DNA of 64,000 nucleotides from Thermoanaerobaculia bacterium (GTDB taxonomy: Bacteria; Acidobacteriota; Thermoanaerobaculia; UBA5066): the NCBI GenBank assembly GCA_963719225.1, contig CAVRAY010000002.1, positions 384,001-448,000 of the forward strand. The letters run 5' to 3'. Shown in pieces: positions 49,637-56,392 of the stretch; position 1 is the stretch's first letter; each line of letters begins with the position of its first letter. The notes under the pieces are model-generated. The model was not told the DNA's origin. It saw only the letters and a program-made list of their open reading frames with translations, and did not search any database. Position numbers and translations under genes: made by a program.

Positions 49637-49664
49637 CGGGACTCCGCGCCGTTTTCGGCCTCGA

Positions 49665-49795
49665 TCTCATCTTCCTCCGGCCGCGTCATGCGGCCTGGAG
49701 CGGGATTTGGCACCTGGCGTCCGGCGCCCCTCGGGGCGCACCGAACCGGTTGCCGCGGCATCGCAGGGCCCGTCCCTCCGCCGCTCTGGATGAAA
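49665..49795 (-). ncRNA. SAM-I (S-box) riboswitch
   Basis: Minus strand TTCATCCAGAG..GGAGGGACGGGCCC..GATGCC.CGGCAACC...GGTGCCAAATCC...GAAGATGAG, upstream of methionine genes. Confidence 0.95.
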
Positions 49796-49816
49796 CCCGG
49801 TCAAAGAGCCGCGGTC

Positions 49817-49862: not shown

Positions 49863-51343
49863 TGTCGTAGCTCCATGAAAGTGTCCCCTCGATAACTCGA
49901 TAGAAGTGTCCCCTCGTAAAGAAGGGGGCGCGATGGAGGAGATCGTGGGGCTGAGCACGAAGGAGAGAGCGCGGCTGGTGGAGCTCGAGCAGGTGAAGGC
50001 CGGGCGTCAGACGGTCGTGGCGGCTGCCGAGCGGCTTCAGATGAGCGGGCGGCAGGGCAAGAGGATCTGGAAGAGATACCGCGCCGAGGGCGCCAAGGGA
50101 CTGGTGCATCGCTCGCGAGGACGGCCGTCGAATCGGAAGTTGGACCCTGAGAGCAAGCAGCAGAGTCTCGAGCTCTGCCGGACGCGGCTGGAAGGTTTTG
50201 GGCCGACACTGGCGGCCGAGAAGCTTCTCGAGGTGGGGCTGAGGGTTTCTCACGAGACGTTGCGGCGGTGGCTGATGGTAGAGGGGCTGTGGAAGAAGAA
50301 AAGGAAACGAGGGCCGCACCGCAGGTGGAGGCCGCCGAAGGAGCACTTCGGCGAGCTCGTTCAGATGGACGGAAGCTTCCACGACTGGCTCGAGACGGGC
50401 CACAAGCCATGCCTGATCGACCTCGTCGACGACGCCACGGCGAAGATGGGAGGCGAATTCTTCGAGCAGGAGACCACCGAAGGAGCGATGAGGGTGCTGT
50501 GGCGGTGGATCGAGCTTTACGGGATCCCCAAGGCGCTTTACACCGACCACAAGAATCTCTACGTGGCTGATCGCGAGCCGACGAAAGACGAGCAGCTCTT
50601 AGGCCGGCCTGCACTGACGGCCTTCGGCAAGGCCTGCCACAAGCTCTCGATTCAGATCATTCCCGCAGCCAGCCCTCAGGCCAAGGGCAGGATCGAGCGG
50701 CGGCACGGCGTGCTTCAGGACCGGCTCGTCAAGGAGTTCAGGCTGCATGGCATCAAGGACCTCCAGGCGGCCAACGCCCTTCTGAGAGGAGGATTCCTCG
50801 AGACGATCAATCAGAGATTCGCGCACAGCTCGGCTAGCCGAGTCGACTACCACCGACCCGTGCCCAAGCGCCTACGGCTCGAGGATGTTTTCGTCTTCGA
50901 AGAGCAGCGCACCGTGCAGAACGACTGGACGGTCGCCTGGGACGGCCGCTGGTTCCAGATTACCGGGCCCAAGTCTCAGATGCCGCGCCGCCGCGAGAAG
51001 ATCGTGGTTCGCCACAGGCTTGATGGCAGTCGGGTGCTGCTTCACTACCATCGAGCCCTCGAGTTTCACGAAATCAAAAACCGGCCGCCTCGGCCGGCGC
51101 CACTGATCAAGCCGGCCTCCGTGGCAACACGCCGCCCTTTCAAAGCGCCCTCTGATGTTCACCCCTGGAGAACACCATTAACCGCCGCAAGCGTCCAGGC
51201 TTCATGGGAGCGCAAGGAGCGCGCCGGCCTCCGATGAGGCCGGCCTCCCGTTTTCCACATTTCCACCGCGCGACGACTACGACGACCAAAAGGGGACATT
51301 TCTAACGAGCTCTACGAGGGGACACTTCTAAGGAGCTTTGACA
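49863..51343. mobile_element. IS1202-like (ISNCY) insertion sequence, about 1481 bp, with 16-bp target duplication
   Basis: TGT...ACA ends; about 55-bp imperfect TIRs with repeated AAGTGTCCCCTCG units; GGCCCGCCCGGCGGGG at 49847-49862 and 51344-51359. Confidence 0.9.
49933..51237 (+). CDS. ISNCY/IS1202-family DDE transposase
   Basis: HTH, FGPTLAAEKL, GELVQMDGSFHDW, VDDAT, YTD, SPQAKGRIER..GVLQDRL. Confidence 0.95.
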   Translation: MEEIVGLSTKERARLVELEQVKAGRQTVVAAAERLQMSGRQGKRIWKRYRAEGAKGLVHRSRGRPSNRKLDPESKQQSLELCRTRLEGFGPTLAAEKLLEVGLRVSHETLRRWLMVEGLWKKKRKRGPHRRWRPPKEHFGELVQMDGSFHDWLETGHKPCLIDLVDDATAKMGGEFFEQETTEGAMRVLWRWIELYGIPKALYTDHKNLYVADREPTKDEQLLGRPALTAFGKACHKLSIQIIPAASPQAKGRIERRHGVLQDRLVKEFRLHGIKDLQAANALLRGGFLETINQRFAHSSASRVDYHRPVPKRLRLEDVFVFEEQRTVQNDWTVAWDGRWFQITGPKSQMPRRREKIVVRHRLDGSRVLLHYHRALEFHEIKNRPPRPAPLIKPASVATRRPFKAPSDVHPWRTPLTAASVQASWERKERAGLR

Positions 51344-51970: not shown

Positions 51971-52140
51971 CGTCGTCCTCCTTTTCGTTCGCCCGGCAGC
52001 TTTCTTCCGCGGCCGTCCGGGGCTTCCGTCAAGAGCTAAGCGGCATTTCCGGCCCGAATGGCTCACGCGCGCGGGCCTGGAGGCGAACGCCTGCCGTGCG
52101 GGCCTCCCCGGAATGTCGGGTAAACTCGATTCCTGACCAG

Positions 52141-53451
52141 ATGAGGATTCTCGTCGTCGGCTCCGGGGGTCGCGAGCACGCGCTCGTGTGGAAGCTCGCG
52201 CAGGCGCCGGGCGTCACGGACGTCTTCGCGGCGCCGGGCAACCCGGGCATGGCGAACAAGGCGACGTGCATTCCGATCGGGGTCGAGAACGTCGTCGAGC
52301 TGGCGGACTTCGCCGAGTCGATGAAGATCGACCTGACCGTCGTCGGACCCGAGCTTCCGCTCACGCTCGGCCTCGTGGACGAGCTCACCAACCGCGGCCT
52401 CACCGCGTTCGGCCCGAACCGCCTCGCGGCGGAGCTCGAAGGCTCGAAGGTCTTCTCGAAGCTCTTCATGAAGAAATACGGCATCCCGACGCCGGACGCC
52501 GAGGTGTGCCAGACGCGGGGCGAGGCGGAGCGCGCCCTCAAGTCGTACGGCCTCCCGTGCGTCTTCAAGGCGGACGGCCTCGCGGCCGGAAAGGGCGTCG
52601 TTGTGGCGCAGGAGGCCGAGGAGGCTGAGCGCGCGCTGAAGCTCTTCTTCGAGGATCGCGTCTTCGGCTCGGCTGGCGACCGCGTTCTCGTGGAACGGTT
52701 CATCGCGGGAGACGAGGTGAGCTTCATGGTCCTTTGCGACGGGGAGCACGCGCTGCCGCTCGCGACCGCGATGGACTACAAGAAGATCTTCGACGGCGAG
52801 CGCGGTCCGAACACGGGCGGAATGGGCGCGCACAGTCCTTCGGTGCTCCTCGACGCGTCCACGGCGTCCGACGTGCTCGCGTTCATCGTGCAGCCGACGC
52901 TCAAGGGAATGGCCGACGAGGGCCGCCCGTTCCGCGGCGTCCTCTTCGTCGGTCTCATCCTCGAGGCCGGACTGAACCCGTACGTGCTCGAATACAACGT
53001 GAGGTTCGGAGATCCCGAGACGCAGGCGGTGCTCCTGCGCATGGACGACAACCTGCTGCCGCTTCTCCTGGGATCGGCACGCGGAAAATTCGACGAAGGG
53101 GCGCAGCTCGGATGGCGGCGCGAGGCGACCGCCGCCCTCGTCATGACGGCCGAGGGCTATCCCGGGCCCTTCGAGCGCGGTCGCGCCATTTCCGGAATCG
53201 AGGACGCCGAGGCGATGGACGGCGTCTTCGTCTTCCATGCGGGGACGGCCCGGGGTCCCGACGACGGCCTGGTGACGTCGGGCGGCCGCGTTCTCGACGT
53301 CTGCGCCCGCGGGCGCGGCCTCTCGCAGGCGCTCGCGAGGGCGAAGGAAGCGGCGGGCAAGATCCGTTTCGAAGGCGCCCATTTCCGGCGCGACATCGGG
53401 AAGAAGGCCCTCGAGATCCTCGTGGAGCGCTCCGGCTCCATGCTCAGATGA
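52141..53451 (+). CDS. purD: Phosphoribosylamine--glycine ligase
   Basis: MRILVVGSGGREHAL, APGNPG, LEGSK, KADGLAAGKGV, GPNTGGMGA, EYNVRFGDPE, TSGGRVL. Confidence 0.97.
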   Translation: MRILVVGSGGREHALVWKLAQAPGVTDVFAAPGNPGMANKATCIPIGVENVVELADFAESMKIDLTVVGPELPLTLGLVDELTNRGLTAFGPNRLAAELEGSKVFSKLFMKKYGIPTPDAEVCQTRGEAERALKSYGLPCVFKADGLAAGKGVVVAQEAEEAERALKLFFEDRVFGSAGDRVLVERFIAGDEVSFMVLCDGEHALPLATAMDYKKIFDGERGPNTGGMGAHSPSVLLDASTASDVLAFIVQPTLKGMADEGRPFRGVLFVGLILEAGLNPYVLEYNVRFGDPETQAVLLRMDDNLLPLLLGSARGKFDEGAQLGWRREATAALVMTAEGYPGPFERGRAISGIEDAEAMDGVFVFHAGTARGPDDGLVTSGGRVLDVCARGRGLSQALARAKEAAGKIRFEGAHFRRDIGKKALEILVERSGSMLR

Positions 53452-54181
53452 AATCGACGAGAACCGGCGGTGGACCCGGGGCGTCGAGGAGCGCGAAGGC
53501 AGCCTCGAGGATCCGGGTCTGCAGCGCGGCATCGCCCGGCTTCCCGAGCGGATACCCGAGCGCGTAAGGCACCGCGAGAGCGCGAGGCGTTCGCACCTTC
53601 TCGGTGACCTCCTTGAGCATCGTGACGGACGTCGTCGCGATGCCGCGCCTCTCGAGCTCGCCCGCGATCAGACCGACGGTCTGGTGGCACATGGGTCAAA
53701 GCGGGACGAGGAACGCCGCGTCGACGCCGTCCGCCGCGAGGAGCGCGGCGGCCGCTGGCGCCGTTTCCTTCACGAGCCGCCCGGGCGCCGTGATCGAGCC
53801 CATGAAGGAGAGGGCGCGGCCGTTCAGCGAGCCGATCTCTCCCTTCGCCACCATCTCGCGCAGCCTCTCGAGCGGAAAGCCGAGATTGCGGTCCGCCCGA
53901 AACCCGCTCTGGTCGAACGCGTCGGATTTGTGCGCGATTCCGAGCGTCGCAACCTCCGCGTCCGCCGGGATCTCGCGGAACGACACGTCGCAGCCCTTCA
54001 ACTCTTCGGTGTCGAACGGAACCTGCGACGGCAGGTGAACGCCCCCCGTCGTCACGAGCGCGACGCGCGCCTCGTGAAGCGGTTTCGCAAGCCTCGTGAA
54101 CGGCACGGGATCGAGCGCACGGTACCGGTACATCGCCATGAAGAGCCGGTTCTTGCGCGACAGGTCCGAAAGGCTCGCCAT
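53444..54181 (-). CDS. PrdB/GrdB-like selenoprotein B with in-frame UGA (Sec) at 53698-53696; 245 aa
   Basis: ORFs 53696-54214 and 53444-53692 are in the same frame; ALVTTGGVHL, DRN.GFPLERL, SFMG, DAAFLVPL-U-PMCHQTVGLIA..LE..GI.T, PYALGYPLG (UxxC). Confidence 0.88.
53669..53698 (-). promoter_or_regulatory. Bacterial SECIS element
   Basis: UGA-CCCATGTGCCAC-CAGACC-GTC-GGTCTG: a hairpin whose loop starts with G, 18 nt after the UGA. Confidence 0.7.
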
Positions 54182-54212
54182 GCCCTCAGTATGACGAAAT
54201 ATGATCGCGCCC

Positions 54213-54770
54213 ATGCACGTTCCCGCCGTCCTCGCGCTTCTCGCCCAGCTCGTCTCGTCGCACGCCGCGCCTTCCGCCGCGGCCTCGACTCCGGCGCCCG
54301 TCTATCCCGTGACATCGGGCGGCGGCCTGACATGGGCCGTGCCGAAGACCTGGGTGCCGGGACCCTCCTCCGCGATGAGGCTCGCGACGTACTTTCTCCC
54401 CGCGTCTGCGGGCGACGCCGAGAGGCCGGAGATGGCCGTCTTCTGGTTCGGGCCGGGAAAGGGCGGGACCGTCGACGCGAACGTGGAGCGCTGGTTCTCG
54501 CAGTTCGCCGCATCTCCCGGCGACCCGAGGCCGACGCGCAGCCTCACGCGGATCGGCTCGCTGCCCGTCACGCTCGTGAAAGCGGCGGGAACGTTTTCCG
54601 CAGGCGCCGGGATGGGCGCCTCGTCCGCGGCGAAGAGCGGCTTTGCGCTCCGCGGCGCGATCGCCGAGGGCCCGAACGGAGCCGTGTTCTTCAAGCTCAC
54701 CGGCCCGCGGCGAAGCGTGGCGGCCGCCGGAAAGGACTTCGACGCCCTCGTCGCGAGCCTCAAGCCCTGA
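54213..54770 (+). CDS. Hypothetical exported protein
   Basis: Signal-like N-terminus; W.VP..W...SSAMRLATY, GG.VDANVERW..QF, FFKLTGP pattern; TATGAT 7 nt upstream of the ATG. Confidence 0.75.
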   Translation: MHVPAVLALLAQLVSSHAAPSAAASTPAPVYPVTSGGGLTWAVPKTWVPGPSSAMRLATYFLPASAGDAERPEMAVFWFGPGKGGTVDANVERWFSQFAASPGDPRPTRSLTRIGSLPVTLVKAAGTFSAGAGMGASSAAKSGFALRGAIAEGPNGAVFFKLTGPRRSVAAAGKDFDALVASLKP

Positions 54771-54782
54771 CAACCGGCCGGA

Positions 54783-56392
54783 TCATCTGATTCCGTACGT
54801 CGCGAGGAAGTGCGTGGGGCCCGGCTTTCGCGCGACGGCGTGGTCGGGATTCGCGGCGAGGTGCTCGAGCACCTTGAAAACCGTCTCGGTCTCCTCCGGC
54901 GCTTCGAGAGAGGCCGCGATGCGCTCGGCCGTCCGGAAGATTCCCTTCTCCCGCTGCAGGTCCGCGAGAAGCCTCGCCTGCAGGGCGAGCACCTGTGCCG
55001 CGGCTTTCTTTCCGGCCTCGACGCCGGGCTGGTGATACGCATTGATGCCGATGAGCTGCGCGTAGAGGCCGACCGTCCGTTCGTAGAGCGCGATGAGAGT
55101 TCCCACGGAGCGCGCGGAAGCGTCCGGAAGGGTGAGCGTGATCGAGCCCCGTCCGTTCTCGTAAAGCGCCTTCCGCGTTCCGAGGAGAAAACCGTGGAGG
55201 TAATCGCCCGAGGTCACGTCGGGCTCGACGGCGAGAGACACGGCGGCGTTCTCGCGGTCGCAGGCGACCTCGACGAACGTCACGAAGAAATTCGGGACTC
55301 CCTCGCGGAGCTGCTGGACGTAAGCATGCTGGTCCGTCGAGCCCTTGTTGCCGTAGACGGCGATGCCCTGCCGGACGACGTTTCCGGCGAGGTCTTTCTC
55401 CTTCCCGAGCGATTCCATGACGAGCTGCTGGAGGTAGCGCGAGAATAGGAGGAGCCGGTCCTTGTAGGGGAGGACGACCATGTCCTTCAGCCCTTTTCCC
55501 CCGTCTCCCGGTACCACGCGAGCGCGAGCATCGCCGCGGGGTTCTTCGAGACCTCTCCGACGCGCGTCGCCTCGTCGCACGCGGCGGCGCCGGCGAGAAG
55601 TCCCTCCACGTCGAGCCCCTGGAGCGCCGCGGGCAGGAGGCCGACGGCGGAAAGCTCCGACGTGCGTCCGCCCACCCAGTCCCACATCGGGAAGCGGTTC
55701 AGCCAGCCGCCGCGCGCGGCCACCTCGTCGAGCTCGCTCGCCTTGCCCGTGACGGCGGCCGCGTGCCTCGGAAAGTCGAGGCCCGCGCGGCGGTAGGCGT
55801 CCGCCGCCTCCAGCATCCCGTTCCGCGTCTCTTTCGTTCCGCCCGACTTCGAGATCACGACCGTGAGCGTCGCGGGCAGGCCCCCTTCGGTCGACGCGAT
55901 GCGCGACAGCTCGCGGGCCATGCCGTCGGGATCGGTGTTGTCGAAGAAGAACGGCCGCATCGGGTCGCGCGGCGAGCCGAGCGCGTCCGCGACGAATTGC
56001 GGCCCGAGAGCCGAGCCGCCGATGCCGACGACGAGGAGATTCGTGAACCGCGGCGCCTTCTGGGGCTTCGGGGAGCCGCCGTGAACGGCGTCCGCGAAGG
56101 CCTCGATTCGCGCGAGCGTCTCTTTGATCGCCTCTTTCGTCTCCGCGTCGGGGGCGCGCTCCGGCGCGCGCAGCCAGTAGTGGCCGACGCGCCTTCCCTC
56201 GTCGGGGTTCGCGATCGCGCCGGCCTCGAGGGCCTCCATCGCGGCGAACGCCGCGGGAAACGCGGAATCCACGAGCGGGTCGCGATGGAGAGCGTCGTCC
56301 TGGAGCGACGTCTTCGAGAGGTCGACGAGGAGCGAGAGGGACGGCACGTGGAGAGAGAGGGCCTGGTAGCGCTGCCACGGATGGAGGCTCAT
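54783..56392 (-). pseudogene. pgi: Glucose-6-phosphate isomerase (cyanobacterial/plastid-like type), split by a 1-nt frameshift near 55494-55502 (possibly a sequencing error)
   Basis: [37 protein letters not shown] in one frame; [33 protein letters not shown] in the next frame. Confidence 0.9.

Follow-up and report, generated by a model that had tools for sequence, protein, structure and literature searches.

A stand-alone PrdB-like gene in Thermoanaerobaculia, divided by ORF calling at an in-frame TGA that almost certainly encodes selenocysteine

Two apparent gene halves on the minus strand of a 64,000-nucleotide stretch of a Thermoanaerobaculia genome (the window, whose coordinates are used throughout) are confirmed to be one gene, at 53444..54181, encoding a PrdB-like (PF07355) protein of 245 amino acids, and its single internal TGA almost certainly encodes selenocysteine, as judged by sequence comparison. 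With TGA read as selenocysteine (U), positions 54181 to 53447 of the minus strand translate into 245 residues with a sole internal TGA at codon 162 (U162; 53696..53698), which bears out the first-pass annotation of this DNA, where an in-frame TGA within LVPL-U-PMCHQ and a length of 245 residues had been claimed. Translation table 11 splits the gene into two ORFs, one ending at 53696 and the other starting at 53692. Family-like sequence had also been noted on both sides of the TGA, and each half indeed matches the PrdB model TIGR04483 separately (E values of 7e-25 and 3e-5), while the joined protein, run in a version that also reads through its terminal stop, matches it over residues 27 to 230 with an E value of 2e-36, stronger than either half. 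The U-P-M-C redox motif (53687..53698, minus strand) lies at the start of a predicted helix spanning residues 163 to 178.

In each of the 30 best loci of the class, one of which is the host's own, TGA and never TAA or TAG stands at the aligned position (29/29 relatives), and the frame past it is free of stops for the next 65 codons in all 29 relatives. Synonymous changes outnumber non-synonymous ones on both sides of the TGA in the closest relatives. Cys-form loci carry TGC or TGT at the U162 site, so that homologs show either TGA or a Cys codon at the position where the first-pass annotation had proposed comparing them. An in-frame UGA aligned with Cys in homologs and followed by a conserved downstream frame, as expected of a bacterial selenoprotein gene, was therefore found, as was, directly downstream of the UGA, the expected SECIS hairpin with a G at the start of its loop. 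Across 210 rows of stand-alone proteins, position 162 is U or C in 94% and position 165 is C in 97%.

The hairpin in question, CAGACC-GTC-GGTCTG (53683-53669, minus strand), carries its loop G at 53677, 18 nt after the TGA, exactly where a G-first-loop hairpin had been claimed. Its local folding energy is no better than that of shuffled sequences (z of 0.24 to 0.87; -1.08 for the longest stretch) in this GC-rich DNA, and the SECIS assignment therefore rests on conservation. Over 48 distinct Sec-form sequences, pairing in the 7-pair stem reaches 95% and 38 changes are double-sided, a level that none of 500 shuffles attained, and slid control partners of the stem are only 17 to 37% paired. Of 146 Sec-form loci, 131 have the 5-pair core together with the loop G, against none of the 19 Cys-form loci examined in that register; the G was scored at +19, and duplicates and loci lacking a U/CxxC match were excluded. 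Comparison at the sequence level thus confirms the hairpin as a Sec-specific SECIS-like element.

The host genome is 97.19% complete with 6.21% contamination and consists of 2 contigs. The first-pass annotation had predicted selA, selB, selC and selD elsewhere in it, and all four are present: selA (443 bits), selB (296 bits) and selD (335 bits) each score over the curated cut-off, selD itself carries a TGA, and the tRNA-Sec gene (selC) was found. Within the class, selA occurs in 149 of 151 genomes. The host has two genes for heme-copper oxidase subunit I, supporting the earlier description of a respiring organism, and a thioredoxin reductase gene. Further probable selenoprotein genes of the host include a Trx-like UxxC gene (C1:208487), a Prx-like WUxxC gene (C1:2923112), a Bcp-like TxxU gene (C1:116334-116738), a HesB-like gene (C2:260826) and selD (C1:3641398-3642363); for the TGA-containing Trx-like, Prx-like and HesB-like genes, the names are in part our own assumption. 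The genome-wide scan for selenocysteine genes was crude, returning 124 mostly false candidates and missing selD, and only hits with family context were used. The closest named database records of the protein are from Thermoanaerobaculia metagenome-assembled genomes, with 87 to 89% identity. Six sequencing runs, five of them probably of DNA, share 5 to 8% of the query's words, all as contigs of related strains; the four of them that were mapped show nothing about transcription.

How close is this protein to the known Stickland subunits? It scores 36.9 bits against PF07355 (GRDB), over the Pfam gathering cut-off of 22, and 126 bits against the PrdB equivalog model TIGR04483, below the cut-off of 300 and far from the 453 bits of a true PrdB control. 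The GrdB model TIGR01918 gives 42 bits versus a cut-off of 65. By size and residues the protein is thus PrdB-like, as it had been labelled, and not GrdB-like. Query and true PrdB are 34% identical over 213 amino acids, and the core residues of true PrdB (D65, R69, H84, D90, D97, N99, E177 and R200) are nearly all kept in the stand-alone proteins. Clostridial PrdB (TIGR04483; PMC11229817) resembles the query in length (241 versus 245 amino acids), in its UxxC at the same place and in these shared core residues; it differs in its motif, TGG-C/U-GTC instead of VPL-U-PMC, and in its operon with prdA, prdC, prdH and a racemase gene, whereas the query lacks such an operon, belongs to a respiring host and has an extra N-terminal helix. 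This helix (residues 9 to 17) is conserved in the query clade and missing from true PrdB. The selenoprotein B of glycine, sarcosine and betaine reductases (GrdB/GrdF/GrdH; PF07355, TIGR01918) has a C-terminal Sec domain homologous to the query (37 bits), but it is a protein of ~430 amino acids with a further N-terminal half and needs GrdE, GrdA and GrdC/D, which were not found for the query.

An AlphaFold model predicts one compact alpha-beta domain (pLDDT of 96, pTM of 0.94) with a fold that appears Rossmann/flavodoxin-like. The best VIA-align matches to it are of the LacI/MlrC/SDR type, Rossmann-like (best Z of 9.4, rmsd of 3.3, 135 aligned residues), and the best 50 matches listed include no thioredoxin-fold chain. 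The Rossmann/LacI-like arrangement is common, and no function can be read from it. A PDB sequence search returned 0 matches for the query protein, with a best E value of 0.15 for the profile, and Foldseek with the predicted structure gave nothing at an E value of ≤0.001. The UGSC family had no match in the host, in a search where no positive control matched either. Among 44 longer or odd relatives, a Pfam scan found single, nonrecurring fusions (AMP-binding, HTH and VTT), and a weak search for longer fusions (502 to 2000 amino acids) scored none.

Reduction of D-proline by PrdB requires the processed, pyruvoyl-bearing form of PrdA, according to the available text of PMC11229817. The PrdA/GrdE family PF09338 was not found in the host genome (97% complete), in any of the 151 class genomes, or in 18 genomes of unstated completeness reached through carrier loci. 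In the phylum, PF09338 matched 2 of 301 genomes, which serve as a positive control and contain only long GrdB-type matches, and it matched none of the other 81 phylum genomes with a hit to the family profile. These surveys are samples with non-independent kin, and the pattern is uniform across them. Thus, the absence of PrdA/GrdE from the host, the class and the phylum genomes with the short form indicates that the query is not a D-proline reductase subunit. GrdA (PF04723) was likewise not found in the host, in a search where no positive control matched. When the proteins of four true prd loci and three grd loci were compared with the host by tblastn (E value of ≤1e-4), the proprotein, the small accessory protein and the racemase, presumably so identified by their position in those loci, had no match, and the sole host match of the PrdC-containing ORF of the true prd loci was a gene that we take to be nuoF. 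The first-pass annotation saw no prd or grd partner in the window; this now extends to the genome, where no match to the PrdA/GrdE or GrdA families was found. In 80 gut-type true prdB loci (L118-L197), the active-site residue is Cys rather than Sec in all 80, with a prdA-like gene adjacent in those inspected.

The gene is not rare, nor new in kind, and belongs to a common family. The query protein was matched in 83 of 151 class genomes. For the family profile, two phyla were sampled at 151 genomes each: 48 gave a match in that of a Syntrophobacteraceae carrier and 30 in that of an Anaerolineae carrier, including a few of GrdB type. Further carriers include marine Halieaceae, Parvibaculales and two alphaproteobacterial plasmids. 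Phylogenetic analyses (a 220-row FastTree and a 45-row IQ-TREE subset) set true PrdB and GrdB apart from the stand-alone group, across a branch with support of only 82/94, and resolve several clades; the query clade comprises 80 rows with support of 98/95 in the subset tree. Its sister clade (support of 95/97) has a conserved, all-helical C-terminal domain of ~170 amino acids fused to the PrdB-like domain, in which a Cys close to the start is conserved and E, D, Y and T residues are invariant; the fusion loci are L061, L062, L071, L099-L107, L110-L114, L214, L217, L218, L221, L223, L224, L226, L231, L238 and L314. For this domain, Pfam, PDB-sequence, Foldseek and Atlas searches gave no match of weight (best Z of 5.7), and a search of the host found no separate gene for it (best E value of 0.54). 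Some acidobacterial clades keep the domain without the first redox residue, with Ser for U/C, or without the second (L292, L294-L302 and L319; L304-L307), and the Chloroflexota members L108 and L109 have a C-U-x-x-C motif with an extra Cys beside the Sec.

The gene neighborhood had been described as purD on one side and an exported protein on the other. The former holds: purD (52096..53451, plus strand; TIGR00877, 464 bits) is convergent and overlaps the 3' end of the gene by 8 nt. The divergent gene at 54213..54770 (plus strand) has no Pfam or NCBIfam match and is only probably exported, as judged solely from its hydrophobic N-terminus. Both lie outside the transcription unit. purD adjoins the gene in 6 of 7 loci of the host's own family and not in more distant carriers, and the divergent gene lies close to it in 5 of these 7, again within that family only; since the adjacency is confined to the host's family, both were rejected as functional partners. 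Otherwise the query clade swaps neighbors from genus to genus, with no conserved neighbor, and the query locus holds no functional clue beyond its family. A -10-like hexamer, CATACT (54188..54193, minus strand), lies 6 nt before the start codon, and a by-eye count of 29 printed loci finds a similar hexamer 6 to 9 nt ahead of the start codon in 25, suggesting that the gene likely has its own leaderless single-gene transcript; a consensus promoter scan at the query locus gave no site. The positions 54188-54213 contain back-to-back -10-like boxes, CATACT on the minus strand and TATGAT on the plus strand, each 6 to 7 nt before a start codon, and would probably give rise to two divergent leaderless transcripts within 31 nt.

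A different part of the family does have fixed neighbors. One clade of 21 rows from Acidobacteriota and Chloroflexota (support of 99/99) holds all 19 peroxiredoxin cases among 209 loci: an AhpC/TSA peroxiredoxin gene is directly upstream in 17 (L067-L070, L072, L076, L243, L244, L251-L253, L290, L291, L293, L308, L309 and L321) and nearby on the opposite strand in 2. A thioredoxin gene is upstream in 4 of the 209 loci, from the phylum of Chloroflexota, and AhpD-like and MsrB genes are further neighbors of stand-alone PrdB-like genes. Neither of the two tested redox neighbors, peroxiredoxin and thioredoxin, occurs in 186 of the 209 loci, including all 80 of the query clade. The pair of peroxiredoxin and PrdB-like protein is kept in Sec/Sec, Sec/Cys, Cys/Sec and Cys/Cys forms, and many of the paired peroxiredoxins, which we presume to be AhpE-like, have no second Cys (1-Cys/1-Sec). 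The proteins of this clade share with the query the domain, the U/CxxC(-like) motif and the lack of PrdA. They differ in forming a separate clade and in their fixed position behind an AhpC/TSA peroxiredoxin gene, while the query falls outside the clade and has no peroxiredoxin gene directly upstream. The linked peroxiredoxin subtype (E value of <1e-53) is present in 24 class genomes, all of one family other than the host's, and in 22 of them it is encoded just upstream of a Cys-form PrdB-like gene; none of 10 congeners of the host reaches 1e-27, and the best match in the host (7e-29) is ~375 kb away. Both clades often co-occur in genomes of the peroxiredoxin-linked family, suggesting that the targets of the paralogs probably differ.

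What, then, might a PrdB-like protein do without PrdA? Lacking a pyruvoyl group, it could not activate the C-N bond of an amino acid, and hence its Sec nucleophile must meet another electrophile. By analogy with the paralogs, the explanation that we favor, giving it about an even chance, is a stand-alone selenol/thiol oxidoreductase recycled by thioredoxin. The U162 selenolate would attack an oxidized sulfur or selenium center of a target protein or small thiol, C165 would then free the reduced target by forming an Se-S bond, and the thioredoxin/thioredoxin reductase system of the host would reset that bond. Oxidized 1-Cys/1-Sec peroxiredoxins are the best lead to a target, as suggested by the paralogous clade. 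We rate an oxidized S/Se target this highly because the recurring neighbors of the family are solely thiol-redox genes and because the peroxiredoxin pair survives every combination of Sec and Cys; the Sec-containing Trx-like and Prx-like genes, the thioredoxin reductase and the respiratory oxidases of the host also count in its favor. This support comes from paralogs, the query clade having no such link. The thiol-redox reading is weakened by the lack of the linked peroxiredoxin subtype in the host genus and by a predicted fold that does not look thioredoxin-like, and the conserved PrdB residues fit small-molecule chemistry of the PrdB kind equally well.

Such chemistry, on a substrate that needs no pyruvoyl group, is a possible but rather unlikely alternative: the Sec would attack a carbon beside a quaternary nitrogen, a sulfonium sulfur or a halide, and C165 would release the product. 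We give it this weight because the core residues of PrdB are kept in the query group and because the B complexes of betaine reductase and of a proposed fluoroacetate reductase use partners that form no pyruvoyl group, as described in the available part of PMC10838667; the helical domain of the sister clade could also shape a substrate site. However, these precedents still need a PF09338-type partner and GrdA/GrdC, none of which was found in the host, and the query clade has no conserved transporter or catabolic gene next to it. It is less probable still, and we consider it quite unlikely, that the protein is a subunit of a reductase whose activating partner, unrelated to PrdA/GrdE, is encoded elsewhere in the genome. 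In its favor, true PrdB works only as a subunit with its partner, and the helix of residues 9 to 17 could be a docking site; obligate subunits, however, are usually cotranscribed, whereas this gene changes neighbors between genera and likely has its own leaderless start, and the domain fused in the sister clade has no separate counterpart in the host.

The two remaining explanations hardly compete with the oxidoreductase. That an incomplete assembly hides the prdA of a genuine D-proline reductase PrdB would agree with TIGR04483 being the protein's best family match and with the many database relatives named "D-proline reductase (dithiol) PrdB," but we regard it as very improbable and largely refuted by the low TIGR04483 score, by the absence of PF09338 from a nearly complete two-contig genome and from its whole class sample, and by the tree position of true PrdB; nor did the proteins flanking true prdB have a tblastn match apart from the presumed nuoF. 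Least probable of all, to the point of being negligible, is a TGA that acts as a real stop, whether through a nonsense mutation or a split into two genes. An ATG 3 nt after the TGA and a hairpin that is not unusually stable by itself would fit a stop, but not the TGA of all 30 top loci with Cys codons elsewhere, the synonymous excess on both sides, the Sec-specific hairpin or the single compact model. Whatever likelihood these readings leave over falls to something else.

Marine selenoproteome surveys have listed the family under the name "PrdB" since 2005. In the available text of the Sargasso Sea survey, a UxxC "proline reductase PrdB" is the third most abundant selenoprotein family, with 42 genes versus 1 GrdA and 1 GrdB (PMC1088965), and that of the GOS survey gives 235 "PrdB" members (PMC2398784); neither text, as far as available, remarks on a missing PrdA, and both file these proteins as proline reductase. 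"PrdB" is also listed for Anaeromyxobacter and Geobacter in the accessible part of PMC1794560 and placed among the five most widespread bacterial selenoproteins in that of PMC9312934. A 2026 review, in its accessible portion, treats PrdB only as D-proline reductase, with an operon named prdB-prdC (PMC13188914), and the accessible portion of a preprint (bioRxiv 10.1101/2022.07.06.499078) adds nothing on orphan PrdB. These environmental UxxC selenoproteins share with the query the UxxC motif, pfam07355 and non-clostridial hosts, and we infer that the marine sequences belong to the same clades as found here. The literature searched, which lacked most subscription papers, yielded no account of PrdB-like proteins that lack PrdA, none of the pairing with a peroxiredoxin and no assayed function for the stand-alone family.

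Most close database relatives of the query are cut at ~160 amino acids, and many are named D-proline reductase. Such truncated or misnamed calls would wrongly assign Stickland fermentation to respiring soil bacteria, a common error that the present gene call corrects. The stand-alone family, which ranks with the most common selenoproteins of the environment, has no solved relative by sequence and, thanks to its natural Cys forms, is easy to assay. A broader proposal, which we advance tentatively and hold to be somewhat doubtful, is that most natural "PrdB" genes are not proline reductase subunits and that the PrdB domain offers respiring soil and marine bacteria a second scaffold, other than thioredoxin, for Sec/Cys redox relays. 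Its clades would be target-specialized, one recharging 1-Cys/Sec peroxiredoxins, one with its own helical domain and the query clade alone, and the Stickland enzyme would be a special case, having acquired a pyruvoyl partner.

The window contains several other features. A SAM-I riboswitch (49664-49796, minus strand; RF00162, 69.7 bits) lies upstream of what we take to be a homocysteine methyltransferase/MTHFR-like gene and a methionine synthase gene. Between the riboswitch region and a secreted-looking 215-amino-acid gene of no known family sits a transposase-like ORF (49906-51237, plus strand) with HTH and integrase-like motifs recognized by eye, which is absent from the same place in the loci of relatives. 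A glucose-6-phosphate isomerase-like gene (54783-56392, minus strand) is split into two frames of 301 and 232 amino acids; relatives have one ORF of 521 to 539 amino acids, and by this sequence comparison the split appears to be a frameshift or an assembly error.
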